A DNA stretch of 64,000 bases from an uncultured Alphaproteobacteria bacterium (GCA_963775315.1 CAVZIN010000007.1:841193-905192), one strand, 5' to 3'; positions 10,007 to 42,664 are shown, numbered from the stretch's first letter. Notes: a model not told the origin generated them from the sequence alone. Numbers and translations are program-made.

Positions 10007-10060
10007 CTCCGAAGCCGCCGTGTTTTCAGGCGTCCCGATCCACGGATCGGAGGCTGTTGC

Positions 10061-10984
10061 CTAGCCCGTGGGCAGCGCTGCCCGAAACGGATGCGTCCGC
10101 ATCCAATGTCGTGCGACGTCGACGCGGCGCGCGATCCATACGTCGCGATGGCCGAGTACGTGATCGAGGAAGCGCTCGACACCGGCGGCGCGCGCGGCAT
10201 GGCCGCTGACCCGGAGGTGGAGCGAGAGGGTCATCGCCCGCGGCCGCCGCGCCGACTCCCGGTACAGGACGTCGAACGCATCGGTCATGTAGGTGACGAA
10301 GTCGCTGGACGTGGCGAACCAGCCGCGGCCGTACTTGTTGTCGTTGTGACTGAAGGTGTGGGGCAGGACCAGGAACGGCTTGCCGCGATCGGTCGTCCAG
10401 AACGGCAGGTCGTCGGCGTAGGAGTTGCAGTCGTAGAGGAAGCCGCCCTCTTCGATCAGCAGCCGTCGGGTGTTGAGCGACGGCCCGTAGCGGCAATACC
10501 AGCCGAGGGGCCGTTCACCCATTGTGCGGGTGAGCGAGGCGACGGCGCCGACGATGTGGTCGCGCTCCGCCGCCTCGTCCATGTTGAACTGCTCGACCCA
10601 GCGCCAGCCGTGGCAGAGCACTTCCCACCCCGCCTCTCGGATCGCCTGGGCAGCGTCGGGATTGCGCTCGAGGGCGAGCGCCGCACCGCTTACCGTCACG
10701 GGCAAGTCGCGCTCACGGAACAGATCGTGCAGCCGCCAGAATCCGACCCGGCTTCCGTATTCGAACAGGGACTCGGCGGCGAGGTCGCGCCCCTTGACGC
10801 CGAGGTCCGGGGCGCCGGCGTCGGTCATCGTGGCCTCCGACCTGCCGTCGCCGTCGGGCACCGAGTACTCCGACCCCTCCTCGTAATTCAGCACCAGGTT
10901 GAACGCCATGCGGGCGCCGTTGGGCCAGCACGGGTCGGGCGGATTGCGCCCGTACCCGACCATGTCGCGCGGATAGTCGGTCAT
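10061..10984 (-). CDS. Divergent PuuE-type allantoinase / polysaccharide deacetylase-family cyclic-ureide hydrolase
   Basis: MTDYPRDMVGYGRNPPDP...NYEEG...FEYGSRVGFWRL resembles PuuE, but the active-site region differs from the canonical copy at 23390. ATGA overlap with the allA stop. Confidence 0.8.
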   Translation of the reverse strand: MTDYPRDMVGYGRNPPDPCWPNGARMAFNLVLNYEEGSEYSVPDGDGRSEATMTDAGAPDLGVKGRDLAAESLFEYGSRVGFWRLHDLFRERDLPVTVSGAALALERNPDAAQAIREAGWEVLCHGWRWVEQFNMDEAAERDHIVGAVASLTRTMGERPLGWYCRYGPSLNTRRLLIEEGGFLYDCNSYADDLPFWTTDRGKPFLVLPHTFSHNDNKYGRGWFATSSDFVTYMTDAFDVLYRESARRPRAMTLSLHLRVSGHAARAAGVERFLDHVLGHRDVWIARRVDVARHWMRTHPFRAALPTG

Positions 10985-12784: not shown

Positions 12785-12912
12785 CGCGGGTTCGCCCGGA
12801 AACCGGGCGGCCGGCCGGCGCCCTGTGCCCAGTGTTCGGGCAGGCTGCATATTCGCGCGCCATCGCTGGCCGCGCGGAACGGCCTTCGGAACGGATTCCG
12901 CCCTGGAAACGG

Positions 12913-20177: not shown

Positions 20178-20314
20178 GGCGGCGCTGCGGATTTGACGCG
20201 ATTTGCGCCGCAAGGCGCCGCGCGGCTGCACAGCGAATGCGCAGGCTGGTCACGCGATGGGCAACGCGGCCCCGTGAAACGTGCGAAGGGGCCCGCACGC
20301 GGCCGTTTTCGTCG

Positions 20315-20360: not shown

Positions 20361-21239
20361 ATGCTTGCGACCCGACAGAACTTGCTGCGCCACTTCTGGT
20401 ACCCGCTGATGCCCGTCGACGGCATCGGGCTGCTGCCGCGCCCGTTCACGCTGCTGGGCCGCGAACTTCTCTTGTGGCGCGATGCGGGAGGAGCGGTCCG
20501 GGCCTCTCCGGAGCCGGCCGGCATCGACGAGCGCTACGGCTATGTCTGGCTCGTCCTCGCCGAGCCGCTGTTCCCGATCCCACCGCTGCCGCCGGCATCG
20601 GACCCGGCGTTTCGCATGATCTCCGAATTTTACGAGGTGTGGCGCTGCGCCGGGCTCCGGCTTATGGAGAACGAGTTCGACAATGCCCACGTTGCCTTCG
20701 TCCACCGCGCGACGTTCGGGGTGATCGCGGAGCCCGAGCCGCCGCGCTCGACCATCTCGCCGACCGCGGATGGGTTCGAGATGCGGACCGTGTTCAACGT
20801 CCGCAACAACGATTTGCAACTGCGCAACCTGCGGACCGCCGAGGACCGCATCGACCGCAATATCGTGATGACCTGGTTCATGCCGTTCTCGCGGACGCTC
20901 GACATCCGCTATCCGAGCGGGCTGCGCCACGTGATCTTCACCGCCGCTACCCCGATCGACGACGCCCATTCGCAGTTCGTGCAGTTCGCCATGCGGAACG
21001 ACAGCGAGGCCGAGGCGTCGGCCGCGGGAGTCGTCGCGTTCGACCGGCAGGTGACCTCGGAGGACCGCGCTGTCCTGGAGACGACCGACCCCGACGTGCC
21101 GCTCGACCTCCGTGCCCGGAACGAGGTGCACATGGCATCGGACCGACCGGGGCTGGTGATGCGCCGCATGCTGGGGGCGGTTCTCGCCCGGCGCGGAGAG
21201 GCGGAGGCGACGGGTGCGCGCGCGCCTGCCTGTTCCTGA
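20361..21239 (+). CDS. Rieske-less paralog of the Rieske oxygenase catalytic subunit (NdmC-like; retains the mononuclear Fe site)
   Basis: 292 aa that align with the paralogs at 7856 and 8898, but the roughly 55 aa carrying CxH...CxxH are absent. Keeps ENEFDNAHVAFVH. GGGAGGAG RBS and a sigma-54 promoter. Confidence 0.75.
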   Translation: MLATRQNLLRHFWYPLMPVDGIGLLPRPFTLLGRELLLWRDAGGAVRASPEPAGIDERYGYVWLVLAEPLFPIPPLPPASDPAFRMISEFYEVWRCAGLRLMENEFDNAHVAFVHRATFGVIAEPEPPRSTISPTADGFEMRTVFNVRNNDLQLRNLRTAEDRIDRNIVMTWFMPFSRTLDIRYPSGLRHVIFTAATPIDDAHSQFVQFAMRNDSEAEASAAGVVAFDRQVTSEDRAVLETTDPDVPLDLRARNEVHMASDRPGLVMRRMLGAVLARRGEAEATGARAPACS

Positions 21240-21325
21240 GGCTGTTGACCAACGATTGATCGAACTTTGTCGGGAAGCGACGGACGCGAAGGCCGTTCGC
21301 GCCCGCCCGGTGGCATTCCCCGCCG

Positions 21326-21341
21326 TGGCACGAATCTTGCA
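21326..21341 (+). promoter_or_regulatory. Sigma-54 promoter for the SBP-permease-puuE-allC-uraD-puuD operon
   Basis: TGGCACGAATCTTGCA, about 47 nt upstream of the ATG at 21388. Confidence 0.7.
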
Positions 21342-21387
21342 TCGCCCCTTTCGGCCGTCCGCAACGTCGAACGATTGGAGATCAACG

Positions 21388-22449
21388 ATGCCGACCAGAT
21401 TATCGAAGCCGCGCGGTCTCGCGGCGAGGCGCGCTGCGCCCCTGTTTGCCGCGGCAGCCGCCTTCGTCGCCGCGGCGCTTTCGGCCCATGGCGCCCTCGC
21501 GAACGAGAAGATCAACTTCCTGACCTCGTGGAAGGCGGAGGCCGAGCACGGCGGCTTCTACCAGGCGCAGGCGACGGGCATCTACAAGAAGTACGGGCTC
21601 GACGTCACGATCCGCCAGGGCGGACCGCAGATCAACGCAACCCAGATGCTGGTCGCGGGCGCGGTCGACATGGCCATGCTGTCTTCGAACGACGACCTGC
21701 TGGTCGCGCTCAAGAATGGCGGGCACATCACGGCTGTGATGGCCGGCATGCAGAAATCGCCGCGTGTCCTGCTTGCCCATCCCGACTCGGGGATCAAGTC
21801 GCTTGCCGACATGAAGGGGCGGCCGATCTTGATCTCCTCGGAATCGATCAACACCATGTTCGCCTGGCTCAAGGCCAAGTATGGGTTCAAGGATTCCCAG
21901 ATCCGCAAGTACACGTTCAACATGGCGCCCTTCATCGCCGAGAAGTCCGCCATTCAGCAGGGCTATGTGTCGAGCGAGCCCTACGTCATCAAGAAGGAGG
22001 GCGGGTTCGACCCGGAGGTCTTCCTCCTCGCCGACTACGGCTACGACACCTACGCCACGATCGTCGCCGTGCCGAACTCGTGGATAAAGACGAAGCCTAA
22101 GGTGGTGCAGGACTTCGTCAACGCCTCGATCGACGGCTGGTACAGCTACATGTACGGCGACCCGTGGCCCGCGAACGCCCTGATCAAGAAGGACAATCCG
22201 GAGATGACCGATGACACGATCGCGTACTCGATCGAGACGATGAAGAAGTACGGCATCGTCGATTCCGGCGACTCCCTGAAGGAAGGGATCGGCGCGATGT
22301 CGGACGCGCGCTGGAAGAGCCAGTTCGACGCGGCCGCGTCAGTTGGGGTCTATCCGAAGGACCTTCCCTACAAGGAGGCCTACACGCTCCAGTTCGTGAA
22401 CAAGGGTCACGGGCTCGAGATGAAGTCCGCCATGAAGCCGAAGATGTGA
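21388..22449 (+). CDS. ABC transporter substrate-binding protein (NMT1/TauA/SsuA family), paralog 1
   Basis: Signal peptide, NMT1-like fold, GGAGA RBS and a sigma-54 promoter. Confidence 0.9.
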   Translation: MPTRLSKPRGLAARRAAPLFAAAAAFVAAALSAHGALANEKINFLTSWKAEAEHGGFYQAQATGIYKKYGLDVTIRQGGPQINATQMLVAGAVDMAMLSSNDDLLVALKNGGHITAVMAGMQKSPRVLLAHPDSGIKSLADMKGRPILISSESINTMFAWLKAKYGFKDSQIRKYTFNMAPFIAEKSAIQQGYVSSEPYVIKKEGGFDPEVFLLADYGYDTYATIVAVPNSWIKTKPKVVQDFVNASIDGWYSYMYGDPWPANALIKKDNPEMTDDTIAYSIETMKKYGIVDSGDSLKEGIGAMSDARWKSQFDAAASVGVYPKDLPYKEAYTLQFVNKGHGLEMKSAMKPKM

Positions 22450-22456
22450 GAGAGTG

Positions 22457-23377
22457 ATGGTCGGTATTCAGCGTGCCATGTCGCGCGGCAAGCTTCACCC
22501 CGGGTCGGTCGCTCCGGCCCGGGCCGGCCGCGCCGCCCCGCCCGCCGCGGACGTCGAGTCCGAGGCGCCGGTCGTCGAGACCTCCAGCCATCGCCAGGCG
22601 CTGGTCAAGTTCCTGATCCCCGCCTTGGTCGGTGTCGCGTTCATCGGCTTCTGGCAGTGGTCCGTCGGCTATTTCGGCGTGCCAAAATTCGTGCTGCCGG
22701 CGCCGAGCCTGATTGCCGCCTCGTTCGTGAAGGACTTCCACTCGCTGCTCGCGTCATTCTGGATCACGTTCCAGGTAACGCTGTCGGCCTTTCTCCTGGC
22801 GGTGGTGACCGGCATCGCGATCGCGGTGATCTTCGTGCAGAACCGCGCCATCGAGTATGCGCTGTTCCCATACGCGGTGATCCTGCAGGTGACGCCGGTC
22901 GTCGCTATCGCGCCGCTGATCATCATCTGGGTCGGGTTCGATCATATCGAGGTGGCGGTGCTGATCCTCGCCTGGATCGTCGCCTTCTTCCCGATCCTGT
23001 CGAACACGACCATTGGGCTCAGCTCGGCGGACCACAATCTTCGAGACCTGTTCTCGCTCTATGGCGCGTCGCGCTGGCAGGTGTTTCGCTACCTCCAGCT
23101 TCCGACCGCTCTGCCCTACATCCTTGGCGGGGCGCGGATCTCGGGCGGGCTTGCCCTGATCGGGGCCGTGGTAGCGGAGTTCGTGGCCGGCTCCGGCGCC
23201 GCCACGGGCCTCGCCTGGCGAATCGTGGAAGCGGGCAACCGGCTCAACATCCCGGCGATGTTCGCGGCACTGATCCTCCTGTCCGCGCTCGGCATCGCCA
23301 TCTTTTTCTGTCTCACCTGGCTGCAGAGCCTGCTGCTCGGGCGTTGGCACGAGAGCGCCGTCGCGCGCGGCGGCTGA
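22457..23377 (+). CDS. ABC transporter permease (BPD_transp_1)
   Basis: Six predicted TM segments; no ATPase gene in this operon. Confidence 0.9.
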   Translation: MVGIQRAMSRGKLHPGSVAPARAGRAAPPAADVESEAPVVETSSHRQALVKFLIPALVGVAFIGFWQWSVGYFGVPKFVLPAPSLIAASFVKDFHSLLASFWITFQVTLSAFLLAVVTGIAIAVIFVQNRAIEYALFPYAVILQVTPVVAIAPLIIIWVGFDHIEVAVLILAWIVAFFPILSNTTIGLSSADHNLRDLFSLYGASRWQVFRYLQLPTALPYILGGARISGGLALIGAVVAEFVAGSGAATGLAWRIVEAGNRLNIPAMFAALILLSALGIAIFFCLTWLQSLLLGRWHESAVARGG

Positions 23378-23389
23378 CGGCCGCCGCCG

Positions 23390-24313
23390 ATGCGTGACGG
23401 AGACGCCACCGGCTATCCGCGCGACATGCGCGGCTACGGGGCGACGCCGCCGGACCCTTACTGGCCCGGTGGCGCCCGTCTCGCCCTCCAGTTCGTGATC
23501 AATTACGAGGAGGGGGCGGAGAATTGCGTGCTGCACGGCGACGCGGCGTCGGAGGCGTTCCTGTCCGAGATCGTCGGGGCCGTGCCGATCCAAGGCGCGC
23601 GCCACATGAACATGGAGAGCCTCTACGAATACGGCAGCCGGGCTGGGTTCTGGCGGCTGCACCGGCTGTTCGCCTCGCGCGACCTGCCGGTCACCGTGTT
23701 CGGTGTCGCCATGGCGCTGGCGCGCAATCCGGAGGCGGTCGCCGCGATGATCGAGGCCGGATGGGAGATCGCAACCCATGGCTGGCGCTGGATCGACTAT
23801 CAGCATGTGTCCGAGGCGGAGGAGCGCGCCGACCTGCTCCGTGCCATCGAAGTTCACACAGGCGCGACCGGGCAGCGCCCGCTCGGCTGGTATCTCGGCC
23901 GGTGTAGCCCGAACACGCGCCGGCTGGTGGCGGAGGAGGGCGGGTTCCTCTACGACGCCGACAGCTATGCCGACGACCTGCCCTATTGGGACACGAGCCA
24001 CGGCCGAGCGCAGCTCATCGTCCCCTATACGCTCGACGCCAACGACATGCGGTTCGCGACGGCGCAAGGCTTCAACGCCGGCGACCAGTTCTTCGCCTAT
24101 CTGAAGGACAGCTTCGATGTGCTGTACGCCGAGGGCGGCGAACAGCCGAAGATGATGTCCGTCGGGCTGCATTGCCGCCTGATCGGTCGGCCCGGCCGCA
24201 TCGCGGCGCTCGCGCGCTTTCTCGACTATATCGCGAGCCATGACCAGGTGTGGGTGTGCCGGCGCATCGACATCGCACGCCACTGGCACGCCCGCCACCC
24301 GCCGCCGTCGTGA
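23390..24313 (+). CDS. puuE: Allantoinase PuuE (polysaccharide deacetylase type)
   Basis: YPRDMRGYG...NYEEGAENCVLHGD...ESLYEYGSRAGFWRL is nearly collinear with characterised PuuE. Confidence 0.9.
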   Translation: MRDGDATGYPRDMRGYGATPPDPYWPGGARLALQFVINYEEGAENCVLHGDAASEAFLSEIVGAVPIQGARHMNMESLYEYGSRAGFWRLHRLFASRDLPVTVFGVAMALARNPEAVAAMIEAGWEIATHGWRWIDYQHVSEAEERADLLRAIEVHTGATGQRPLGWYLGRCSPNTRRLVAEEGGFLYDADSYADDLPYWDTSHGRAQLIVPYTLDANDMRFATAQGFNAGDQFFAYLKDSFDVLYAEGGEQPKMMSVGLHCRLIGRPGRIAALARFLDYIASHDQVWVCRRIDIARHWHARHPPPS

Positions 24314-25599
24314 CGGCTCGGGCCAAGCTTGCGCCCGCCGCCGGCTATCGTCGCGACGCCGAAACGGTGATGGCGCGGCTTGATGCGCTGGCCGCGTGTT
24401 CGGAGACCGAGACCGGTCTCACCCGCCGTTTCCTCACCCCCGCGCACCGCGCCGCCATCGATCTGGTCGCGGGCTGGATGGGCGCGGCCGGGATGACGAC
24501 GCGGCTCGATCCGATGGGGACGCTCATTGGGCGTCGCGAAGGGAAGCGGCCAAGCGCGCCCTGCCTGATGCTCGGCTCGCACATCGACACGGTCGTGGAC
24601 GCCGGGAAATACGACGGCGCGCTGGGGGTGATCGCCGCCATCGCTTGTGTCGCACGCTTCGCCGAAACCGGGTTCGCCCCCGACTTTGCGATCGAGGTGG
24701 TCGCGTTCGGCGACGAAGAGGGCTCGCGCTTCCCGATCACGCTGACATCGAGCCGCGCGCTCGCCGGCACGCTCGACCCCGGGGTCTTCGCCATCCGCGA
24801 TGCCGCCGGGACGAGCCTCGGCGAAGCCATGCGGTCCTTCCGGCTCGATCCGGAAGCGCACCGGGCGGCGGCGCGGCGGCGCGAGGACGTGCTGGCATAT
24901 ATCGAGCTGCATATCGAGCAGGGGCCTGTGCTGGAGGCGGAAAGCCTCCCGGTCGGGGTGGTGACTGCCATCGCGGGCCAATCGCGCTTCGAGGTCGCGA
25001 TCGAAGGTGTGGCCGGCCACGCCGGGACCGTGCCGATGGCACTCCGCCGGGACGCGCTGGCTGCGGCGGCCGAGTGCATCCTGGCGGCCGAGGATGAATG
25101 CCGCGCCCGCGCCGGGTCGGGCGCGGTCGGGACGGTCGGGCGCATCGCGGCGGCGCCCGGGGCCGTCAATGTGATTCCGGGCCGCGCGCAATTTGTCCTG
25201 GATGTGCGAGCGCCCGCCGATGCCGACCGGTCCGCGGCGGTCGACGCGCTGCGCGCCCGGTTCGAGGCGGTCGCCAAGCGCCGCGGCGTATGGCTGGAGA
25301 TGCGTGAGACTCATTCGGCGGCGTCGGTTGCCTGTGCGTCCGATTTGGCGGATTGCCTCGCCCAGGCCGTCGCGGCGGAGGGCGTGAAGGTGCGCCGCCT
25401 GCCCAGCGGGGCAGGGCACGACGCCATGGCCGTCGCGGCGCTTTGCGACGTGGCGATGCTGTTCGTCCGATGCCGCGGCGGGGTGAGTCATCATCCGGAC
25501 GAGCATGTCGAGATTACCGACGTCGCCGTCGCCCTCGCCGTGCTCGATCGCTTCGTGCGCGCCTTCGGAGCGGCAACCTGCCCAAGGTTCGGGCAGTGA
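24310..25599 (+). CDS. allC: Allantoate amidohydrolase-like M20/carbamoylase-family hydrolase
   Basis: Zn-binding blocks GSHIDTV, DEEGSRF and HAGTVPM. A GTG at 24310 is coupled to the puuE stop; an alternative ATG lies at 24370. Confidence 0.8.
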   Translation: MTARAKLAPAAGYRRDAETVMARLDALAACSETETGLTRRFLTPAHRAAIDLVAGWMGAAGMTTRLDPMGTLIGRREGKRPSAPCLMLGSHIDTVVDAGKYDGALGVIAAIACVARFAETGFAPDFAIEVVAFGDEEGSRFPITLTSSRALAGTLDPGVFAIRDAAGTSLGEAMRSFRLDPEAHRAAARRREDVLAYIELHIEQGPVLEAESLPVGVVTAIAGQSRFEVAIEGVAGHAGTVPMALRRDALAAAAECILAAEDECRARAGSGAVGTVGRIAAAPGAVNVIPGRAQFVLDVRAPADADRSAAVDALRARFEAVAKRRGVWLEMRETHSAASVACASDLADCLAQAVAAEGVKVRRLPSGAGHDAMAVAALCDVAMLFVRCRGGVSHHPDEHVEITDVAVALAVLDRFVRAFGAATCPRFGQ

Positions 25600-25701
25600 G
25601 GCCGGTTCTCCGCGCGCCAGGGCAGCGATTTCCACGCATTTCCGGTCGCCCATGCTTGGCACGCCGCTTGCAAGGCGAGGGACGGGACAAGGCGTGAGGC
25701 G

Positions 25702-26244
25702 ATGACGGTCCAGTTCCTGCTCGCTGAGCTCAACGCGATGCCGCGCGGCGATTTCGTTGCCGCGCTGGGCGAGGTGTTCGAGCATTCGCCCTGGGTCGCC
25801 GGCTGCGCCTGGGATGCGCGCCCATTTGAGAGTCGGACGGCACTGCACCGGGCGATGGTGGGCGCGGTGCGCGCGGCGGGACGCGAGCTGCAGGTCACGC
25901 TGGTCTGCGCCCATCCCGATCTTGCCGGGCGGCTCGCCCGCAAGCGCAAGCTGGGCGCGCATTCGGCGCAAGAGCAGGCCGCGGCAGGACTCGACAGCCT
26001 GACGGACGACGAGTTCGCGCGGTTCGAGAGGTTGAACGCGCTCTATCGCCGCTGCTTCGATTTCCCTTTCGTCATCTGCGTTCGCGATCACCACAAGTCC
26101 GCCATCCTCGAAGCGTTCGAGCGCCGCCTGTTCCACACGCCGGAGCACGAACTGGACGAGGCGCTGACCAACATCGCCCGCATTGCCGAGCTCCGCCTCG
26201 TCGGGCTGGTCGCTGATCCCCAACCCGAGAGAGCCGAGCCGTGA
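25702..26244 (+). CDS. uraD: OHCU decarboxylase (2-oxo-4-hydroxy-4-carboxy-5-ureidoimidazoline decarboxylase)
   Basis: 180 aa, AHPDLAG motif, in an operon between allC and puuD. Confidence 0.85.
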   Translation: MTVQFLLAELNAMPRGDFVAALGEVFEHSPWVAGCAWDARPFESRTALHRAMVGAVRAAGRELQVTLVCAHPDLAGRLARKRKLGAHSAQEQAAAGLDSLTDDEFARFERLNALYRRCFDFPFVICVRDHHKSAILEAFERRLFHTPEHELDEALTNIARIAELRLVGLVADPQPERAEP

Positions 26245-27449
26245 TGAATCCCGAAATCCACGAATGGCTGAGCCTCGCGCTGCGCTGGGCGCATATCGTG
26301 ACCGCGATGGCGTGGATCGGCGCGTCGTTCTATTTCATGTGGCTCGATTCCCACCTCGAGCCGCCGCGCCATCCGAAACCCGGCGTCGAGGGTGACCTGT
26401 GGATGGTTCACTCCGGCGGGTTCTACGAGGTGAACAAGATCCTGGTCGCGCCGCGGGATCTGCCGCCCCACCTGCACTGGTTCAAGTGGGAGGCCGCGTT
26501 CACCTGGATTAGCGGCATCTGCCTTTTGGCGGTGGTCTATTACCTAGGCTCGTCGGCCTTCCTGATCGACCCCGCCGTCGCCAATATCGAGCGGCACGAT
26601 GCGCTCGGAATCGCGTTGATCCTCTTCATCGTCGGCTGGTTCGTCTATGACGGGCTCTACATCTCGCCGTTGGCGAAGATGGGCCATCTCGCCGCCGCGA
26701 TCGGGTTCCTCCTGCTTTGCGGCGTCGCATACGGGTTGTTCCATATTTTCGCCGCGCGCGCGGCCTACATCCACGTCGGCGCGCTGATGGGCACCATCAT
26801 GGTGGCGAACGTGTGGGTGCGCATCATACCGGCCCAGCGCGCCCTGGTCGCCGCGACCAAGGCGGGCACGCGGCCCGACCCGACGCTCGGGCTCCGGGCC
26901 AAGCAGCGGTCGGTGCACAACAACTACATGACGCTGCCCGTCATCTTCGTGATGATGAGCTCCCACTACCCCGAGACGTACGGCAACAAGTACGGCTGGG
27001 CGATCCTGATCGGAATGTTCGTTGTGGGCGCGGTGGTCCGCCACTGGTTCAACCTGCGGAACGCGGGCCGCACCCATTGGTGGCCGGTACCGGTCTCGGT
27101 GGCCGGGGTGCTGCTGATCATGTACCTGACCATGCCGGCGCGCCCGACGATGGAAGCGATGGCGGCGACCGCGGGTCCGGCGGGGCACGTGCCGTTCGGC
27201 GAGGTGCGCGCAGTGTTCGAGCGGCGCTGCGTCGCCTGCCATTCGCGCCACCCGACCGACAGCGACTTCGTCGTGCCGCCCAAGAACATTGTCTTCGATT
27301 CCGCTGCGCATATCCGTGGCCACGCCGAGGACATCATGCGGACGGTCGTCGTCGCGAAGATCATGCCGCTCGGCAACGTCACCGGCATGACGCCGGCGGA
27401 GCGCGCGCTGCTCGGCCGATGGCTGGCCCAGGGCGCGCCGGTCAACTGA
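26241..27449 (+). CDS. puuD: Urate hydroxylase PuuD (membrane protein with a C-terminal cytochrome c)
   Basis: Multi-TM N-terminal region, C-terminal CVACHS heme-binding motif, and a start that overlaps the uraD stop. Confidence 0.85.
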   Translation: MMNPEIHEWLSLALRWAHIVTAMAWIGASFYFMWLDSHLEPPRHPKPGVEGDLWMVHSGGFYEVNKILVAPRDLPPHLHWFKWEAAFTWISGICLLAVVYYLGSSAFLIDPAVANIERHDALGIALILFIVGWFVYDGLYISPLAKMGHLAAAIGFLLLCGVAYGLFHIFAARAAYIHVGALMGTIMVANVWVRIIPAQRALVAATKAGTRPDPTLGLRAKQRSVHNNYMTLPVIFVMMSSHYPETYGNKYGWAILIGMFVVGAVVRHWFNLRNAGRTHWWPVPVSVAGVLLIMYLTMPARPTMEAMAATAGPAGHVPFGEVRAVFERRCVACHSRHPTDSDFVVPPKNIVFDSAAHIRGHAEDIMRTVVVAKIMPLGNVTGMTPAERALLGRWLAQGAPVN

Positions 27450-27456
27450 GATGCGG

Positions 27457-28701
27457 TCAGGAGCCCCCGAGCAGGTCGACGAGGGCGCGGGCCACGATCT
27501 CGGTCGCGGCCGCGAGGTCGGCGAGGCGCAAATTCTCGTCGGCGTTGTGTCCGTTGGCCTCGGCCAGGGTGCGGGGTCCGGCGCCATACAAAACCACGGG
27601 GATGCCGGCGGCGGCATAGTGGCGCGCGTCAGTGTAGAGCGGCGAGCCGACGACCGGAACCGGATGGCCCAGGAGCGGTGCGGCGTGGCGGGCGAGCGCC
27701 TCGGCCAGCCGCTCCCACCCCGGTCCCGGGGCGAGCGGCGCGGCGGCGAGTACGATTGCCGTCTCGACGGTGATGTCGGGATATTCGCTCGCAGCCTCGG
27801 CAACCAGCGCGCGCAGCTCGGCCTCGGCGTCGGATGGCGTCTCCTCGGGCACGATGCGCCGGTCGAGCCGGAAGCGCACCCGGTCGGGCACGACGTTGGC
27901 GGCGATGCCGCCGGAGATCGTCCCCACGTTCAATGTCGGCGCGGCGATCCCTGGGATGGCGGAGCATCGCTCCGCCAGCTTTGCGCGATGGGCGTAGAGG
28001 GCGGCGAGTACGCCGGTCGTGGCCTCCAGCGCATCGCGCCCGGCGGCGGGTTCCGCCGCGTGGGCCTGGCAGCCGGTGACCGTGACCTCGAGATGCAGGC
28101 AGCCATTGTGGGCGTTGACGATGGCGTGGCTGAACCCGGCGCAGATCGCGTAGTCGGGCCGTGCGAGTCCCTCGTCGAGCAGGAATTTCGGGCCGATCTG
28201 GCCCCCCGTCTCCTCGTCCCAGGTGAAGTGCAGCTCCACCGTGCCGCCGAGACGCGCGCCCCCTGCCGCGGCCTCGCGAAGCGCGAGCAGGGCGAAGGCG
28301 TAGGTCGCGAAGTCGGACTTGGAAACCGCGACGCCGCGCCCGTACATGCGCGCATCGCCGCCCACGCCGGCGATCTCCGCGCCGTAGGGGTCGTGGGTCC
28401 AGCCGAGCCCGGGCGGCACCACGTCGCCATGTGCGTTGAGGGCGAGGGTCGAGCCGTCGCCGAACCGGTGGCGAACGATCAGGTTGGTCGCGCTGATCAT
28501 GCCGGCCCGGCGCGCGCGCGCCTCCGGCACGGGGTACGCCGCGACCGGGAGGCCCAGCCCTTCCAGAAGGGTGCGCGCGACGTGGGCATGCGGTGCGCAG
28601 TCGCCCGGTGGGTTGTCGGAAGGCGCCCTGACCAGCGCCGCCAGAAAGGCGAGCTGCCGGTCGCGCTGACGTTCGAGGTAACGGGAAATCGCGTCGGTCA
28701 T
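27457..28701 (-). CDS. M20-family metallohydrolase (ArgE/DapE/carboxypeptidase G2-like)
   Basis: 414 aa with M20 metal-binding motifs (HGDVV, DEE), on the opposite strand. Confidence 0.85.
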   Translation of the reverse strand: MTDAISRYLERQRDRQLAFLAALVRAPSDNPPGDCAPHAHVARTLLEGLGLPVAAYPVPEARARRAGMISATNLIVRHRFGDGSTLALNAHGDVVPPGLGWTHDPYGAEIAGVGGDARMYGRGVAVSKSDFATYAFALLALREAAAGGARLGGTVELHFTWDEETGGQIGPKFLLDEGLARPDYAICAGFSHAIVNAHNGCLHLEVTVTGCQAHAAEPAAGRDALEATTGVLAALYAHRAKLAERCSAIPGIAAPTLNVGTISGGIAANVVPDRVRFRLDRRIVPEETPSDAEAELRALVAEAASEYPDITVETAIVLAAAPLAPGPGWERLAEALARHAAPLLGHPVPVVGSPLYTDARHYAAAGIPVVLYGAGPRTLAEANGHNADENLRLADLAAATEIVARALVDLLGGS

Positions 28702-28742
28702 CGGCGCGGCAGTCTATCCGAAGGAACGAGGTGAAACGAGCC

Positions 28743-29729
28743 ATGGCCACGCAAATCCGAACCACACAGACCGCGCACTTGCCGCTGATCGACATCGAGG
28801 GCCTCGTAAGCCCCGATCCCGCCCGCCGCCAGGCGGTCGGTGCCGCCATGCGCGCCGCCTGCATCGACAAGGGTTTCATGTACGTCACCGGCCATGGGGT
28901 GCCGGAGCGTCTGATGGACGAAACGTTCGCCCTGTCGCGGGACTTTTTCGCTCTGCCGCTTGGGACGAAGCAATCCTACGATGTGCGGAACGCCATCGCG
29001 CGCCGCGGCTATGCCGGCATCCGCACCCAGGCGTTCCAGCTGGGCCCCGCCGACCTCAAGGAAAGCTTCTTCTTCGGCGAGGAGCTGCCGCTCGACGAGC
29101 CGCGCGTGGTGCGCGGACTCTACGACCACGGCCCGAACCAGTGGCCGGCGGAGCTGCCGGCGTTCCAGCCGGTCATGTACGAATACTGGCGCCAGATGAT
29201 GGCGCTGAGCGAGCGGCTGCTGGTCAGGCTTGCGCTGTCGCTCGGCCTCCCTGAGCCGTTCTTCGACGGATTCAAGCGCGCCGCGATGTGCCCGGTGCGC
29301 CTGCTGCACTATCCGCCGCCTCAGGACGACAGCCCGCTTGGCGAGGTGAGCTTCGGTGCCCACACCGATTTCGGCGGCATGACCGTGCTTGCCCAGGACG
29401 CGGCCGGCGGGCTCCAGATCCAGGGCGAGGAGGGGGATTGGATCGACGCGACACCGGTGCCCGGCGCGTTCATCGTCAATCTCGGCGATTTCGTACAGCG
29501 TTGGACCAATGACCTCTATCGCTCAACTCTGCACCGAGTGGTGTCGAACGGCGGCGCACGCTACTCCATCGCGGCGTTCTACGACGGCAATCCGGAATAT
29601 CGCGTGGAGACGTTGCCGGGCTGCATCTCGCCGGGCGAGGCGGCGAAGTACCCGCCGACCACGATGATCGAGTATCTCGAGATGCGCGCAAGGAGGTCCC
29701 AGGTCGATTACGGCGAGCAGGCGTTTTGA
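28743..29729 (+). CDS. 2-oxoglutarate/Fe(II)-dependent dioxygenase (IPNS/ACC-oxidase-like family)
   Basis: 328 aa, HxD...H facial triad (HTDFG...H) and the RxS 2OG-binding motif. Confidence 0.8.
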   Translation: MATQIRTTQTAHLPLIDIEGLVSPDPARRQAVGAAMRAACIDKGFMYVTGHGVPERLMDETFALSRDFFALPLGTKQSYDVRNAIARRGYAGIRTQAFQLGPADLKESFFFGEELPLDEPRVVRGLYDHGPNQWPAELPAFQPVMYEYWRQMMALSERLLVRLALSLGLPEPFFDGFKRAAMCPVRLLHYPPPQDDSPLGEVSFGAHTDFGGMTVLAQDAAGGLQIQGEEGDWIDATPVPGAFIVNLGDFVQRWTNDLYRSTLHRVVSNGGARYSIAAFYDGNPEYRVETLPGCISPGEAAKYPPTTMIEYLEMRARRSQVDYGEQAF

Positions 29730-30244
29730 GCGCAGCACCGCCGGACATCAATGCGGAACTGCACGCCCAGCTGCATGCCTGCGGAGTGACGGTCGCCGCG
29801 TCGCTGCCGGACGACTGGATCGCGCCGCTGATCGGGCGGATCGCCTCTGATCCCGGGATGCGGCACGTTCCGGTGGCGCGCGAGGCCGAGGCGGTGGCGA
29901 TCTGCAGCGGCGCGTTCTTCGGCGGTGTGCGTTCCGCCGCGCTGATGGGCGCGACCGGCCTGCTCACCTGCACGGGCGAACTCGCGACGCTCAACCTGCG
30001 GCACGCGATTCCGGTGTTTCTGATCGTGAGCGCACGCGGTTCGATCGACGACCACCGGATCTACCAGGAGGTGCAGGGTCGCCGTACGCGGCCGCTGCTC
30101 GACATGTACGACTTCCCCTATCACGTGATCGAAAGTGCGGACCGGATCGGCGACATACCCGACTGCTACGAGACCTGCCGCCTCCAGAAGCGGCCCTTCG
30201 TGCTGTTCCTCGCGCGCCACCTGATGAAGGGGGACGTACGATGA
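29726..30244 (+). CDS. TPP-dependent decarboxylase alpha subunit (sulfopyruvate/phosphonopyruvate decarboxylase ComD-like)
   Basis: About 172 aa TPP-enzyme N-terminal (PYR) domain. The putative TTG start overlaps the dioxygenase stop; the exact start is uncertain. Confidence 0.7.
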   Translation: MSAAPPDINAELHAQLHACGVTVAASLPDDWIAPLIGRIASDPGMRHVPVAREAEAVAICSGAFFGGVRSAALMGATGLLTCTGELATLNLRHAIPVFLIVSARGSIDDHRIYQEVQGRRTRPLLDMYDFPYHVIESADRIGDIPDCYETCRLQKRPFVLFLARHLMKGDVR

Positions 30245-30843
30245 ATGCGCGCGAGGCTATCGAGGTTCTGGCGGCCCACCGCGGCGACGCCGTTGCCGTC
30301 TGCGCGCTCGGCATGGCGGCGAACGAATGGTGGGCGGTGACCGAGGGCGAGGATTCGTTCTACATGCATGGCGCCATGGGCTTCGCGGCGAGCTTCGCGC
30401 TCGGCCTCGCCCTTTCCCTGCCGCAGGCGACCGTCTGGCTGTTGAACGCGGACGGGTCTCTCTGCATGAATCTCGGCTGCCTTCTCACCGAAGCAGGACA
30501 GGCCGCGCCCAACCTCAAGCATTTCGTCATCGACAACGGCGTCTACCAGACGGTCGGCGCCGTTCCGATGGTCAATCGAGGTCGCACGGACTATGCCGCC
30601 ATCGCCCGCGGCGCCGGCTTTCCGCGCGCCCGCACCATCGAGGATATCGACACGCTTACTCGCGCGATGCCGGAGATCGCAACCGAGCGAGGCCCGACCT
30701 TCACCGCCGTCCGAGTCCCGCCCGAGACCGGCTTCCTGCGCACGCCGCCGATGACCTACGAAGGTCCGGAGATGAAGTACCGCTTCGGCCGTGCTCTTGA
30801 ACGCAAATTCGGCATCGACGTATTCGGGCCGCAGGGCTACTGA
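30241..30843 (+). CDS. TPP-dependent decarboxylase beta subunit (ComE-like, TPP-binding PP domain)
   Basis: 200 aa, GDG-x25-N TPP/Mg motif (NADGSLCMNLGCLLT...DNGVY), ATGA coupling. Confidence 0.75.
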   Translation: MNAREAIEVLAAHRGDAVAVCALGMAANEWWAVTEGEDSFYMHGAMGFAASFALGLALSLPQATVWLLNADGSLCMNLGCLLTEAGQAAPNLKHFVIDNGVYQTVGAVPMVNRGRTDYAAIARGAGFPRARTIEDIDTLTRAMPEIATERGPTFTAVRVPPETGFLRTPPMTYEGPEMKYRFGRALERKFGIDVFGPQGY

Positions 30844-30936
30844 TCGCTGCCGTTTTCGTGAGCGTTTGACCATCGATTGACCGGCACGCGCACCGCACCG
30901 GTCGCCGTCCCGCCCGTTCTCGCGCCAATCCTGCGC

Positions 30937-30953
30937 TGGCATGAATCTTGCAT
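30937..30953 (+). promoter_or_regulatory. Sigma-54 promoter for SBP paralog 2
   Basis: TGGCATGAATCTTGCAT, about 45 nt upstream of the ATG at 30996. Confidence 0.65.
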
Positions 30954-30995: not shown

Positions 30996-32027
30996 ATGCT
31001 CGAGATGCTCAGGATCGGACGCCGCAGGTCGGCGCTCATGGCAGCGGCCGCCTTTGCCGCCGGAGTCCTCGTCGCGCACGAGGCGTCCGCCGACACGAAG
31101 GTGAGCTTCCTTACCTCGTGGAAGGCGCAGGCCGAGCATGGCGGCTACTATCAGGCGCTGGCGCTCGGATATTTCAAAAAGCATGGGCTCGACGTCAAGA
31201 TCCGCGAAGGCGGGCCGCAGCTCAACGGCACCCAGATGCTGGCCGGCGGCGCGGTCGATTTCGCCATGCTGTCGAACAACGATGACATCCTCCAGGCGGT
31301 CATCCATGGCGCGCATATGAAGGCGGTCATGGCCGGGTTCCAGAAGTCGCCGCAGATCCTGATGACCCACGAGGGCAACGGCATCGAAAAGCTGGAGGAC
31401 ATGAAGGGCAAGCCGATCCTTCTGGCGGCCGGCTCGGTCAACACCATGTTCGCCTGGCTCAAGGCCAAGTACGGCTTCATGGATTCGCAGATCCGCAAGT
31501 ACACCTTCAACATGGCGCCGTTCCTCGCCGACAAGAATTCGATCCAGCAAGGGTACCTGTCGAGCGAGCCGTTTATCGTGAAGAAGGAGGGCGGAATTAC
31601 TCCCAAGGTCTTCCTGCTCGCCGACCATGGCTACAACACCTACGCCTCGATCACCGCGACCTCTGACAAGATGATCGAGGAGCATCCCGAGGTGGTGCAG
31701 GCCTTCGTCGACGCCTCGATCGAGGGGCTCTACAGCTATCTCTATGGCGATCCGTCTCCGGCGAACGCGCTGATCAAGAAGGACAACCCGGAGATGACCG
31801 ACGATACGATCGCGTTCGGCATGGCAAAGCTCAAGGAGGCCGGTATCATCGACTCGGGCGACGCGCTGACGATGGGCATCGGCGCGATGACCGACGCGCG
31901 CTGGAAGAGCCAGTTCGCGTCTGCCGCTTCGGTCGGCGTCTATCCGAAGGATTTCGACTACAAGAAAGCCTACACGCTGCAGTTCGTCGACAAGGGCCAC
32001 GGTCTCGCGATGAAGCCGAAGATGTAG
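30996..32027 (+). CDS. ABC transporter substrate-binding protein (NMT1/TauA family), paralog 2
   Basis: Close paralog of the 21388 gene (shared blocks KVSFLTSWKAQAEHGGYYQA, NTMFAWLKAKYGF), with its own sigma-54 promoter. Confidence 0.9.
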   Translation: MLEMLRIGRRRSALMAAAAFAAGVLVAHEASADTKVSFLTSWKAQAEHGGYYQALALGYFKKHGLDVKIREGGPQLNGTQMLAGGAVDFAMLSNNDDILQAVIHGAHMKAVMAGFQKSPQILMTHEGNGIEKLEDMKGKPILLAAGSVNTMFAWLKAKYGFMDSQIRKYTFNMAPFLADKNSIQQGYLSSEPFIVKKEGGITPKVFLLADHGYNTYASITATSDKMIEEHPEVVQAFVDASIEGLYSYLYGDPSPANALIKKDNPEMTDDTIAFGMAKLKEAGIIDSGDALTMGIGAMTDARWKSQFASAASVGVYPKDFDYKKAYTLQFVDKGHGLAMKPKM

Positions 32028-39439: not shown

Positions 39440-40237
39440 GTGACGGCTTCGCTCGACCGCGCGCGGGAACGCTGGACCGCGAGCCGGCGCTCCCGGCTCG
39501 CGGCCCATCTGTTCACGCTCGCTGCCCTCGCGGCGTGGCAGGGCTATTCGATGACGGTGGAGCCGTTCGTGATGCCCGGGCCGTGGCCGGTGGCAATACG
39601 GCTCTACCAGTTCCTCACCACCTGGAGCCTCGCCCGACAGGCGTTCTACTCGTTCGGTCACATCTTCGCGGCCATGGCGCTTTCGTTCGTCGTCGGCAGC
39701 GGGCTCGCGTTCCTCGCCCATTACGTGCCGGCGCTGCGGCTTGCCGTCCATGGCCGGCTGAGCCCATTCCTCAACTCGTTTTCGGGGATCGGCTGGACGC
39801 TGCTCGCCATCGTCTGGTTCGGCGTCAACGATTTCACCGTTATATTCGCGATTACGGTGGTTCTTACCCCCTTCGCGATCATCAACATGCGCGAGGGGCT
39901 GGAGACGCTCGACGCCGAGCTACTCGAGATGTCGGCGAGCTTCACCCGCCGGCGCGGGCGGGAGTTCACGAAGATCGTGCTGCCCGCGCTGATGCCTTTC
40001 ATCTTCGCGACGGCGCGTATCAGCTTCGGCGTGTCCTGGAAGGTGACGCTGGCGGCCGAGCTGTTCGGCGGGCGCACCGGCCTCGGCTATCTCTTCAACT
40101 TGGCGCGCCAGGATTTCGACATGGCGCTGATCCTGGTCGTGATCGTCGTCATCATCGCCTTCGTCTACGGCACCGACCGGCTGGTGTTCGCGCCGCTACA
40201 GGCCCGGCTCGGCCGCCATCATGGGGCGGCGCCGTGA
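39440..40237 (+). CDS. ABC transporter permease
   Basis: Multi-TM BPD_transp_1 protein with a GTG start. Confidence 0.85.
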   Translation: MTASLDRARERWTASRRSRLAAHLFTLAALAAWQGYSMTVEPFVMPGPWPVAIRLYQFLTTWSLARQAFYSFGHIFAAMALSFVVGSGLAFLAHYVPALRLAVHGRLSPFLNSFSGIGWTLLAIVWFGVNDFTVIFAITVVLTPFAIINMREGLETLDAELLEMSASFTRRRGREFTKIVLPALMPFIFATARISFGVSWKVTLAAELFGGRTGLGYLFNLARQDFDMALILVVIVVIIAFVYGTDRLVFAPLQARLGRHHGAAP

Positions 40238-41019
40238 CGGCGATCGTTCGCCCCACCCCGCGTCCGCCCCGGCGCCGGGCCTTCACCGAGCGTGCCATCG
40301 CCGACGGGCTGGTGATCGTGGCCGTTGTCGGTTGGTGGCTTGGCGCCCGCCACATGCCGGAGTTCATCCTACCCGGTCCGGTCGACGTGGCGCGGACGCT
40401 GGCGGCGCTGTTCGTCACCGCGTCGCTCCTCGCCGACACGGCGACCAGCGCGTTCCGCGTGGTCGTGGCGGTGGTCGTCGCGGTCGTGCTCGGCAGCGCG
40501 CTCGCGATCCTGCCCTACCGCTTCCCGGTGACGGACCGGATTGTGCACGACCGGATCAAGCCGTTCCTCAATTCGTTCCCGTCGGTCGGATGGGCGATCC
40601 TGGCGATGGTGTGGTTCGGCACGTCGTCGCTTTCGGTCATCATCGTCGAGGTGATGATTCTGACGCCGTTCTGCCTGGTGAACGTCTCCGAGGGCATTCG
40701 CGAGCTCGACCACGAGCTGCTGGAAATGGGGGCGAGCTTCACGCGCAGCCGGCGCCGGGTGATGTTCAAGATCGTCGTGCCGCTGCTCTTGCCCTACACC
40801 CTGTCGGCGGTGCGCATCGCCTATGGCGTGGCATGGAAGATCGCGCTGGTCGCCGAGCTGTTCGGCGCGACCAGCGGGCTAGGCTACGTCATGCTCAAGG
40901 CCGAAATCGTATCCGATGCTTCCACGGTCTATGCCACCTGCTTTGCGATCGTCATCCTGTTCCTCGTCGGCGAGAAGCTGGTGATCGATCCCCTGTCGCG
41001 CTTGGTGAGCTACAAGTGA
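40234..41019 (+). CDS. ABC transporter permease (second subunit)
   Basis: Paralog of the preceding permease; a GTGA-coupled start. Confidence 0.85.
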   Translation: MTAIVRPTPRPPRRRAFTERAIADGLVIVAVVGWWLGARHMPEFILPGPVDVARTLAALFVTASLLADTATSAFRVVVAVVVAVVLGSALAILPYRFPVTDRIVHDRIKPFLNSFPSVGWAILAMVWFGTSSLSVIIVEVMILTPFCLVNVSEGIRELDHELLEMGASFTRSRRRVMFKIVVPLLLPYTLSAVRIAYGVAWKIALVAELFGATSGLGYVMLKAEIVSDASTVYATCFAIVILFLVGEKLVIDPLSRLVSYK

Positions 41020-41038
41020 ATATTATTGGAGAGGCGAG

Positions 41039-42664
41039 ATGGTCGCGGCGGACCTGCTGCTGAAGAACGGCGCGGTGATGACGCTCGACGCGAGGTCGAC
41101 GCGCACCGACGCCGTCGCGATCGCGAACGGGCGGATCGTGGCGCTGGGCGCGGACGCGCTCGAATTGGCCGGCCCGCGAACCGAGACGGTAGACCTTGGC
41201 GGACGGACCGCCATACCCGGGCTGTTCGACAGCCACATCCACACCGTGATGGGCGGGCAGAACGAGCTCGCCGTCTCGCTCGAGGACGCACGCTCGGTCG
41301 CGGACGTGCAGAAGGCCTTCGCCGCGCGGGCGAAGACGGTCGCGCCCGGCACGTGGATCCTCGGCGGCAGCGGTTGGCATGAAAGCCAGCTCGTCGAAGG
41401 GCGCATGCCGCACCGGGCCGAGCTCGACGCGGTGACGCCGAACAATCCGGTGTTCCTCCGCCGCGGCGGGCATGTGGCGGTCGCGAACAGCGCTGCGTTC
41501 AAGATCGCCGGCATCACCAAGGAGACGCCCGACCCGCACGACGGGGTGATCGCGCGCGATCCGGGCACCGGCGAGCCCAACGGCATGCTGGTCGAGCGCG
41601 CCGCCTTCACCATGGTGCTGAAGCACGTTCCGAAGCCGACCCGCGCCGACTACGTCGAAGGCCTCAAGAAGTACACCGCCCGGCTCAACGGCCGCGGCAT
41701 CACCGCGACGCTGGAGCCGGGCATCAGCCTCGACGAAATCGCCGCCTACATGGAGCTCTGGCGCCAGAAGGCCATGACAACCCGGGCGCGCATCTTGCAG
41801 CGCGTCGCCTGCGCCGACGACGTGTCCGGCCTGACCCAGGTGCTGGCGCCCGAGTTCGGCGACGATTGGCTGCGGATCGGCGGGTTCAAGTACATGGCCG
41901 ACGGCGGCATCGAGGCGGCCTATCTGCGCGAGCCTTACCAGATCGTGGAGGGCGAGCAGAACGACCCCGAATTCCACGGGAAGATGGTGCTCCCGCCGGG
42001 CGGGCTCGACGAATTGCGCGAGATGATGATGGAAGCCGCCGCGCAGGGCTGGCAGATGCAGATCCACATGGTCGGCGACGCGACCATCGACACCATCGTC
42101 GGGCTTGTGGAGGAGGTCGCGCGCAAATACCCGGTCGGCGACATGCGCTGGACCATGATGCATGTCTTCCTGCCGACCGACGAGGCGCTCGCCAAGATGA
42201 GGCGGCTGGGGCTGCGCGCCACGGTGCAGGACCATCCAGTCAAGCTCGGCCACAACATGCTGCGGTACTGGGGCGAGGCGCGGGCGGCAAAGTCGATACC
42301 GGTGCGCTCGATCCTCGCCGCAAAGATCCCGACCGGCGGTGGCACCGACGCGCCGGTGGTCGACTGGAACCCGTTCGAATCGATCTGGTGGATGACCACG
42401 CGCAAGGTGTTCGCCCAGGGCGGCGTGCGCGTGCTGGGGCCCGAGGAGGCCATCGGCCGGGAGGAGGCTCTGCGCCTCTACACGCTGGGCAGTGCCGAAA
42501 CCTGCTTCATGGAGAACATTGTCGGTTCGATCGAGCCCGGCAAGCTCGCCGACATCGCGGTGCTCGACGCCGACCCGATGTCGGTCGAGGACGACGCGCT
42601 CCGCGACATCAAGGCGGCCCTCACCGTCGTCGGCGGCAGGATCGTCCACCGTCATGGTATGTGA
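41039..42664 (+). CDS. Amidohydrolase-3 family metal-dependent hydrolase (YtcJ-like)
   Basis: 541 aa, HxH (DSHIHTV) and later metal ligands. Confidence 0.85.
   Translation: MVAADLLLKNGAVMTLDARSTRTDAVAIANGRIVALGADALELAGPRTETVDLGGRTAIPGLFDSHIHTVMGGQNELAVSLEDARSVADVQKAFAARAKTVAPGTWILGGSGWHESQLVEGRMPHRAELDAVTPNNPVFLRRGGHVAVANSAAFKIAGITKETPDPHDGVIARDPGTGEPNGMLVERAAFTMVLKHVPKPTRADYVEGLKKYTARLNGRGITATLEPGISLDEIAAYMELWRQKAMTTRARILQRVACADDVSGLTQVLAPEFGDDWLRIGGFKYMADGGIEAAYLREPYQIVEGEQNDPEFHGKMVLPPGGLDELREMMMEAAAQGWQMQIHMVGDATIDTIVGLVEEVARKYPVGDMRWTMMHVFLPTDEALAKMRRLGLRATVQDHPVKLGHNMLRYWGEARAAKSIPVRSILAAKIPTGGGTDAPVVDWNPFESIWWMTTRKVFAQGGVRVLGPEEAIGREEALRLYTLGSAETCFMENIVGSIEPGKLADIAVLDADPMSVEDDALRDIKAALTVVGGRIVHRHGM

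Follow-up and report, generated by a model that had tools for sequence, protein, structure and literature searches.

Sigma-54 promoters need a bacterial enhancer-binding protein (bEBP), and an upstream activator site is required by most of them. At the enteric glnAp2 promoter the NtrC boxes are tandem 17-bp elements of the form TGCACC-N5-GGTGCA. The stretch of DNA analysed in this work, henceforth the window, covers 64,000 nucleotides from an uncultured alphaproteobacterium (GCA_963775315.1, CAVZIN010000007.1:841193-905192), and contains ten -24/-12 matches (1.58 expected), eight of which lie inside a gene island between 9.9 and 31 kb. As in the enteric systems, candidate activator boxes of the island have a 17-bp 5-N7-5 geometry, occur in tandem about two helical turns apart, are phased on the helix face, are placed about 75-130 bp before the start site of a -24/-12 promoter, and precede nitrogen-scavenging genes. 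The palindromes of the island and the enteric NtrC half-site differ by one base. Two of the eight promoters, located upstream of paralogous binding-protein genes, are preceded by an 18-bp motif which departs from the palindrome: only the left half is kept (TGACC versus TGCCC), the right half GAyCG matches GGGCA at 2/5 positions, dyad symmetry is missing and the AT-rich centre is conserved. The motif is most likely an ordinary kind of regulatory element, the upstream activator site of two nitrogen-regulated sigma-54 promoters. Judged from the sequence, the probability that it is an enhancer box for an NtrC-family activator is roughly one half.

A motif shared by two promoters and its relation to a box family

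Copy 1 of the motif (TTGACCAACGATTGATCG) spans residues 21245-21262, copy 2 (TTGACCATCGATTGACCG) residues 30866-30883, both on the plus strand. Reading of the sequence and pattern searches bear out what the initial annotation had reported, namely that the two 18-mers are identical at 16/18 positions, and that each contains two TTGAyC hexamers spaced 11 bp apart. In copy 2 the repeat unit is longer (CGTTTGACC and CGATTGACC, CGwTTGAyC). The promoters located downstream, TGGCACGAATCTTGCA at 21326-21341(+) and TGGCATGAATCTTGCA at 30937-30952(+), are both near-consensus; the first drives operon 1, the second the paralogous binding-protein gene. Motif start and promoter start are 81 and 71 bp apart at copy 1 and copy 2, respectively, and the enhancer distance of 65-80 bp originally proposed was thus roughly right. 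If the copies are described as 17-bp boxes, copy 1 (TGACC-N7-GATCG, 21246-21262, plus strand) is centred 72 bp, and copy 2 (30867-30883, plus strand) 62 bp, upstream of the -24 element.

Besides the two copies, no other exact match to TTGACCANCGATTGAYCG exists in the whole window. Allowing up to 3 mismatches, 3 matches are found versus 0.36 expected, the additional one (54504(-)) being unconnected to any promoter. When the two 150-bp upstream regions were compared in both orientations, 7/1000 dinucleotide shuffles yielded a match of 16/18 or better. The motif is the best-conserved block between the two upstream regions, the promoter itself apart, and non-coding columns flanking it are only 33-45% identical. 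Fourfold degenerate sites of the paralogous binding-protein genes are 63% identical versus 44% expected, which implies that neutral DNA has not been fully randomised between the paralogues; under a null model which takes homology into account and assumes the roughly 45% identity of the flanks, p is about 0.02, according to our own binomial estimate. A match by chance is moderately unlikely.

A 17-bp box is found upstream of the -24 element in 8/8 sigma-54 promoters of the island, with the centre 50-81 bp away (60, 50, 80, 81, 60, 72, 70 and 62 bp), and at 6/8 promoters the box shows no more than 2 mismatches to the palindrome TGCCC-N7-GGGCA. In related contigs, seven box-promoter pairs show distances of 58-102 bp between box centre and -24 element. 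Distances are helically phased: Rayleigh R is 0.78 at 10.5 bp (n = 15), a value reached in 1e-4 of random-distance sets, and 0.87 for the window promoters alone (null 0.002). The motif has both the position and the helical phase of the boxes found at the other six promoters of the island.

An element built from TG(A/C)CC(A), with the centre 50-102 bp upstream of the -24 element, has been identified at nearly every sigma-54 promoter of the window and of three related contigs (L081, L084 and L085, described below). TGCCCA is the word most enriched in the upstream regions (p = 2.6e-6), followed by TTGACC and TGACCA. An unsupervised search for a 17-bp motif in 14 upstream regions, 6 from the window and 8 from L081, L082, L084 and L085, returned the consensus TGmCC-N7-GGkCA, and the sites chosen at the two binding-protein promoters were exactly those of the motif. 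The log-likelihood ratio of the search was 245.7, versus 193.6 +/- 5.3 (maximum 209.6) in 40 shuffles. When a position weight matrix was trained without the two regions carrying the motif, but with the orthologous promoters included, the two sites ranked 8 and 10 among 128,000 window positions. No better candidate for an activator site was found within 260 bp of the two promoters.

Additional boxes accompany both copies. Weak partner boxes, TGCCTGTTCCTGAGGCT at 21227-21243(+) and TGCCGTTTTCGTGAGCG at 30848-30864(+), both with 3/10 mismatches to TGCCC-N7-GGGCA, lie 19 bp upstream of motif 1 and motif 2, respectively, as measured centre-to-centre. The former includes part of the stop codon of the Rieske/VanA_C gene located upstream, and falls within a block, CTGCC..TT.C.TGAG, conserved with copy 2. 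A box with 3 mismatches is in itself not significant, as 0.6% of positions reach that level, but the two elements could be the actual, though weak, NtrC sites of these promoters. A second conserved block (GCCGTTCGCGCC at 21291-21305, CCCGTTCTCGCGCC at 30910-30923) is found between motif and -24 element; at copy 1 it belongs to an inverted repeat (21281-21305, CGGACGCGAA and TTCGCGCCCG), and might be the site of a bending protein or of a second regulator.

The boxes of the other six promoters are the following. Between the divergent sigma-54 promoters 12784(-) and 12914(+) a tandem enhancer (12826-12862) is formed by the perfect palindrome TGCCCAGTGTTCGGGCA (12826-12842) and, 3 bp apart, by a second box, TGCATATTCGCGCGCCA (12846-12862). 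A similar tandem enhancer (20227-20263) resides between the divergent promoters 20174(-) and 20315(+), and reads on the minus strand box 1 TGCCCATCGCGTGACCA, 3 bp, box 2 TGCGCATTCGCTGTGCA (20227-20243). Box 1, at 20247, is a hybrid, in which one half follows the consensus (TGCCCA) and the other, TGACCA, is like that of the motif. The divergent region of L081 is co-linear with both divergent intergenic regions of the window, and the hybrids found in the window (TGCCCATCGCGTGACCA) and in L081 (TGCCCAGAACGTGACCA) fill, in this co-linear module, the slot occupied by the perfect palindrome at 12826. Another perfect palindrome, TGCCCAAGGTTCGGGCA (25579-25595), which is 15/17 identical to TGCCCAGTGTTCGGGCA, is centred 70 bp upstream of promoter 25657(+), driving genes for OHCU decarboxylase and urate oxidase PuuD. 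A box with 1 mismatch, TGCCTAGCCCGTGGGCA (10058-10074), is centred 60 bp upstream of promoter 10006(-), driving Rieske/VanA-type oxygenase genes. A sequence shared by other promoters of the island, CTGC(G/A)(C/T)ATTCGC, had also been singled out earlier. It is indeed present, as CTGCATATTCGC at 12845-12856 and GCGAATGCGCAG at 20233-20244(-), but it is no separate motif, being the left part of the second 17-bp box in both tandem enhancers (12846-12862, 20227-20243), 3 bp from the first one. A related AACGATTGG had been placed at 21370, next to the ribosome-binding site. The exact word found there is only the 8-mer AACGATTG, expected about once per 300 bp by our own estimate, and overlaps ATTGGAGA, a conserved ribosome-binding context common to both paralogues; a third copy of the motif at this place is not supported.

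Conservation in relatives and nitrogen genes in metagenomes

Binding proteins of the closest relatives are 74% (L081), 68% (L082), 67% (L084) and 64% (L085) identical, and their genes carry the same promoter type, TGGCAYGAATnTTGC. In L084 the orthologous promoter is preceded by GTGACCAAAGAATGGGCG, which is centred 72 bp upstream of the -24 element, exactly as copy 1 is. The L084 box at 72 bp reads TGACCAAAGAATGGGCG, and links motif and palindromic types. The counterpart in L082 is TGATCAATTTTTATGCG. L081 is a 4.8-kb Logan contig cut some 65 bp before the -24 element, at the very place expected for the motif; its first bases, ATCGG, could be the end of a copy. What is conserved across the orthologous promoters is the left TGAyCAA half together with the AT-rich centre. 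The second hexamer is not conserved, as it reads ATGGGC in L084 and differs in L082 as well, and the direct repeat of two half-sites, considered at first the conserved feature, is therefore not maintained in the closest orthologous promoters.

L085 (JGI Ga0395785_0000135) extends over 78 kb and contains an island that closely resembles the one in the window, along with an IS110 transposase. Similar islands occur in two further contigs from uncultivated bacteria, L209 and L213. In all three a creatininase-family gene is divergent from the binding-protein gene, and Rieske/VanA oxygenases, AtzD/TrzD, M20 and 2-oxoglutarate (2OG) oxygenases are encoded; the divergent creatininase promoters of these islands feature TTGA rather than TTGC as -12 element (TGGCACGCATATTGAA). 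In the homologous cluster found on Rhizobium plasmids a LysR regulator is encoded divergently, and neither a sigma-54 promoter nor a sequence like the motif is present.

A wider sample was obtained by scanning metagenomes for TGCCC-N7-GGGCA with TGGCAY-N5-TTGC located 41-71 bp downstream. At least 120 matches were found. Among the matches listed, the first downstream open reading frames (ORFs) encode P-II proteins (5), UrtA-like Peripla_BP_5/6 proteins (5), ammonium transporters (3) and NMT1_2 proteins (3), and further ones glutamine synthetase, an ANTAR regulator, an amidase and amino-acid binding proteins. The genes behind the metagenome matches fit the NtrC core regulon and its known expansions as described (PMC5343134). 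Box-promoter distances in 80 metagenome matches peak at 50-51, 58-62, 67-72 and 78-80 bp, and the two sites of the motif, at 72 and 62 bp, fall inside these peaks. Partner boxes at offsets of 19-23 bp are also frequent among the matches listed (23 versus 4 at control offsets), often at 21-22 bp. On a metagenome contig (L107, 2135-2215) a box identical to TGCCCAGTGTTCGGGCA is centred 58 bp upstream of a sigma-54 -24 element; L107 has no protein homology to the window.

Since the palindrome precedes glnB/K, amtB, urtA-like, nrtA-like and glnA genes, the palindromic boxes of the island may be regarded as NtrC-type sites, and TGCCC-N7-GGGCA appears to be an NtrC box of uncultivated, GC-rich bacteria. 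Our literature search for an alphaproteobacterial NtrC consensus retrieved no explicit sequence. The initial annotation had proposed the motif as an upstream activator sequence for a missing bEBP, or as the site of a co-regulator. The proposal is supported in part. Position, phase and conservation fit it; as to the missing dedicated bEBP, the island palindromes are of the nitrogen-gene type, and the activator would most simply be an unlinked general regulator. Plausibly this is NtrC, probably encoded outside the window. The co-regulator alternative draws on a match of the motif to the PucR box.

The activation of the two promoters can be envisaged as follows. The motif would be the promoter-proximal box of a bipartite enhancer of about 40 bp, serving promoters P21326 and P30937. 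Under nitrogen limitation a dimer-forming protein of the NtrC family would bind the adjacent boxes 21227-21243 and 21246-21262, and, at the other promoter, 30848-30864 and 30867-30883. The binder would most simply be the general NtrC, alternatively a close paralogue with altered half-site preference. The activator would oligomerise, loop the DNA from a fixed helix face to the sigma-54 holoenzyme sitting at -24/-12, and open the promoter. The resulting production of binding protein, permease, allantoinase and allantoate amidohydrolase would allow the cell to scavenge nitrogen from ureides or N-heterocycles. Sequences, positions, phasing, conservation, promoter type and gene functions are seen in the data, as is the link of the palindromic box type to nitrogen-assimilation genes. 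We infer both the identity of the binding protein and that the same protein would recognize the divergent motif box and the palindromic boxes.

Several observations weigh against this picture. Compared to the strict palindrome TGCCC-N7-GGGCA, the motif has 4/10 mismatches, a level attained by 3.4% of window positions, and dyad symmetry is not visible within it. In both copies, and partly in L084, the bases deviating from the consensus are kept, as is the AT-rich centre (A at position 3, GAWT within the spacer, the final CG), unlike what is expected for a merely weak NtrC site. If the position weight matrix is trained only on promoters non-homologous to the binding-protein promoters, the two sites fall to ranks 45-145 of 128,000, which means that membership in the box family rests largely on related promoters and hybrids. 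TGACC/TGATC halves were found in none of the partner boxes located beside nitrogen-gene boxes in metagenomes, a small sample. The metagenome scan for the motif plus a sigma-54 promoter gave 0 matches, and the exact motif is thus without independent replication. In 80 genomes carrying binding-protein orthologues at 50-63% identity, 0 have the motif and 0 have an upstream sigma-54 promoter. The absence of both indicates that the regulation is lineage-specific, and makes phylogenetic footprinting in these 80 genomes uninformative. Finally, a search for GAFTGA revealed no bEBP gene in the window or in contigs L081-L086.

Alternative readings of the motif

Somewhat unlikely, though better placed than other alternatives, is the hypothesis that the motif is the operator of a purine/ureide-responsive helix-turn-helix co-regulator of the PucR type, located beside the weak NtrC boxes at 21227-21243 and 30848-30864. 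According to this hypothesis, the promoters would integrate nitrogen status, sensed through NtrC and sigma-54, and substrate availability, sensed through the co-regulator. The rut operon of E. coli combines NtrC and RutR comparably. Allantoinase and allantoate amidohydrolase, both encoded by the operon behind copy 1, belong to enzyme classes reportedly found among the targets of PucR in Bacillus, and with such enzymes for allantoin degradation in the operon the resemblance to be described is biologically apt. Like the motif, the PucR box of B. subtilis is found upstream of allantoin-degradation genes. Its sequence is WWWCNTTGGTTAA, according to the consensus of Beier et al. 2002 quoted in PMC8478341. 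The minus strands of copy 1 (AATCGTTGGTCAA) and copy 2 (AATCGATGGTCAA) match the consensus in the quoted form at 12/13 and 11/13 positions, respectively, and are the only matches with no more than 2 mismatches to it in the window. The orthologous promoter of L084 carries ATTCTTTGGTCAC. Moreover, conservation extends contiguously over what is the spacer in the 17-bp description, a pattern which suits a contiguous 13-bp site better than a 5-N7-5 dyad, and a good NtrC box is missing at the two promoters. Yet, relative to the quoted consensus, two matches are not above chance (1.49 expected at up to 2 mismatches), and a relaxed PucR pattern occurs about once per 58 kb across all the sequence examined. 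The likeness emerged only afterwards, when the motif was set against several known consensus sequences, and in such a comparison some match is likely. No PucR-family gene was seen among the scanned ORFs of the window or the annotated genes of related loci. The PucR consensus comes from a Firmicute, a member of another phylum, in which sigma-A promoters are involved, whereas the promoters described here depend on sigma-54, and PucR is no enhancer-binding protein. Promoter 25657, which precedes the purine-catabolic urate oxidase and OHCU genes, has a perfect NtrC-type palindrome and no PucR-like box, and more distant orthologous clusters have other regulators, such as the divergent LysR in Rhizobium.

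A broader possibility, and a rather doubtful one, is that the enhancer of the two binding-protein promoters has been re-specified, either for a dedicated NtrC paralogue reading TGAyCAA-type half-sites, or for a PucR-type sensor of purine catabolites acting beside a weak NtrC box.

The similarity could also have no function, being a residue of duplication or a chance match in 64 kb. This is improbable. Neutral sites of the paralogues are unsaturated, the significance reached in the shuffle test is only moderate, a 64-kb window commonly contains pairs of unrelated places matching at 16/18 by our own estimate, and the exact motif occurs in no other sequence searched. In contrast, strong conservation is confined to motif and promoter, position relative to the -24 element and helical phase are those of bona fide sites, a partial match lies at the identical distance in the orthologous promoter of another organism (L084), and the activator site that sigma-54 promoters mostly need has no better candidate nearby. 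The motif is probably functional.

Very improbable is, in turn, that the motif is read head to tail by a protein recognizing direct repeats one helical turn apart, such as a response regulator of the OmpR/PhoB type, or serves a protein of another family, such as LysR, acting as co-activator or repressor. The exact 11-bp spacing of the hexamers in both copies would be explained, a direct reading TGmCCA-N5-TGACCA also suits the hybrid boxes at 20247 and in L081, and a LysR regulator is divergent in the homologous Rhizobium cluster; on the other hand, L084 and L082 have not kept the second hexamer, the two window copies count as one observation because they are paralogous, no response-regulator or LysR gene was found nearby in Pfam scans, and the intergenic region of the Rhizobium LysR gene contains no similar sequence. 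TGATCA-like half-sites are nearly self-complementary, and direct and inverted readings are hence indistinguishable.

The motif has been compared with other candidates, among which a RutR operator, an NtrX site, an IHF site, a sigma-70 promoter and a terminator or structured RNA have been discarded. The motif resembles the operator of E. coli rutA, a sigma-54/NtrC-dependent promoter of an N-heterocycle catabolic operon with an upstream TTGACCA-containing RutR operator, TTGACCAnnTGGTCAA; only the first half is found in the motif, the second half has 5 mismatches, the partner TGGTCAA is absent and no TetR-family gene is present in the window. Upstream activating sequences of the XylR/DmpR type are made up of TTGATCAA-like units. 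The TTGAyC(A/G)A units of the motif lie similarly upstream of sigma-54 promoters, and a perfect TTGATCAA is found in L082, 92 bp upstream of the -24 element. Differently from the XylR/DmpR sites, units stand 11 bp apart instead of 8 bp, the genes do not form an aromatic-catabolic system and no XylR-type gene is nearby; the literature searched yielded no explicit string for the XylR sequence. The pattern CAA-N3-TTG is that of NtrX. It occurs in copy 1 only (CAACGATTG), as copy 2 has CAT, and contains too little information to be counted. The minus-strand sequences GATCAATCGTTGG and GGTCAATCGATGG miss the IHF consensus WATCAANNNNTTR at 2-3/9 positions, and lack AT-rich flanks. A sigma-70 promoter based on the TTGACC hexamers has no -10 partner, and a scan found 0 sites. 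Nor is there support for a terminator or a structured RNA where the upstream genes end, since no terminator was detected and folding z-scores are +1.05 and +1.28.

The gene island and its regulation

The operon behind promoter 21326 (operon 1, 21388-25599, plus strand) encodes a binding protein of the NMT1/NitT-TauT type (21388-22449), a permease (22454-23377), allantoinase PuuE (23390-24313; 560 bits versus an NCBIfam cut-off of 424.6) and allantoate amidohydrolase (24250-25599; 546 versus a cut-off of 479), all on the plus strand. The paralogous NMT1-type protein encoded behind promoter 30937 (30996-32027, plus strand) is 68-69% identical in amino acid sequence to the operon 1 protein. An ATP-binding cassette (ABC) ATPase is encoded at neither locus: operon 1 has only a permease, and at locus 2 the binding protein stands alone. 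In L085 an ATPase gene adjoins the creatininase gene. The candidate ATPase ORF of a third transporter of the window (40221-41063) has no Pfam match.

Genes located between about 0.6 and 34 kb encode xanthine-dehydrogenase-type subunits, four oxygenases of the Rieske and/or VanA_C type, two PuuE-like deacetylases, a creatininase-family enzyme, amidohydrolases, a cupin, ureidoglycolate lyase, OHCU decarboxylase, urate oxidase PuuD, two M20 amidohydrolases, a 2OG oxygenase and a split thiamine pyrophosphate (TPP) enzyme. By its predicted gene content the region is a nitrogen-heterocycle and purine/ureide scavenging island. The only regulator genes found in the window are MarR (34970) and ArsR (53413), and PucR-, LysR- and TetR-family genes were not seen among the scanned window ORFs. 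Boxes have been identified at two additional places. A perfect TGCCCGCACGCTGGGCA box (3086-3102) lies within the gene for the xanthine-dehydrogenase large subunit (2397-4748), where no sigma-54 promoter was detected downstream, and may be due to chance or be an intragenic site. Two overlapping TGNNC-N7-GNNCA boxes (TGCGCGCGACGTGGGCA and TGGGCATGCGGTGCGCA, 28572-28599) are found at the 5' end of a minus-strand M20 gene, about 140 bp upstream of the 2OG-oxygenase/TPP operon, with no recognisable sigma-54 promoter. Outside the island, the valyl-tRNA synthetase gene (46693-49360) is split into overlapping frames, 46693-48315 and 48056-49360, with the Pfam match to tRNA-synt_1 running across both. 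This organization could be due to a frameshift or to an assembly error, or the essential gene could be a pseudogene.

The annotation of the two promoters has thus been refined, and knowledge of sigma-54 regulation is unchanged. The more useful by-product of the analysis is plausibly the NtrC-type box, along with the phased architecture of all eight promoters. The motif marks the two promoters which depart from the palindrome, and hence indicates a place to seek a second, substrate-specific input. Should the PucR-type co-regulator prove to be involved, a PucR-box specificity known from Firmicutes would have been kept in an alphaproteobacterium, and coupled to sigma-54 activation. If the assignment of the motif to an NtrC-family activator is confirmed, a purine/ureide/N-heterocycle island of about 25 kb would constitute a single nitrogen-limitation regulon, run by eight phased sigma-54 promoters, and TGCCC-N7-GGGCA could be used to annotate the nitrogen regulons of uncultivated alphaproteobacteria-like genomes.

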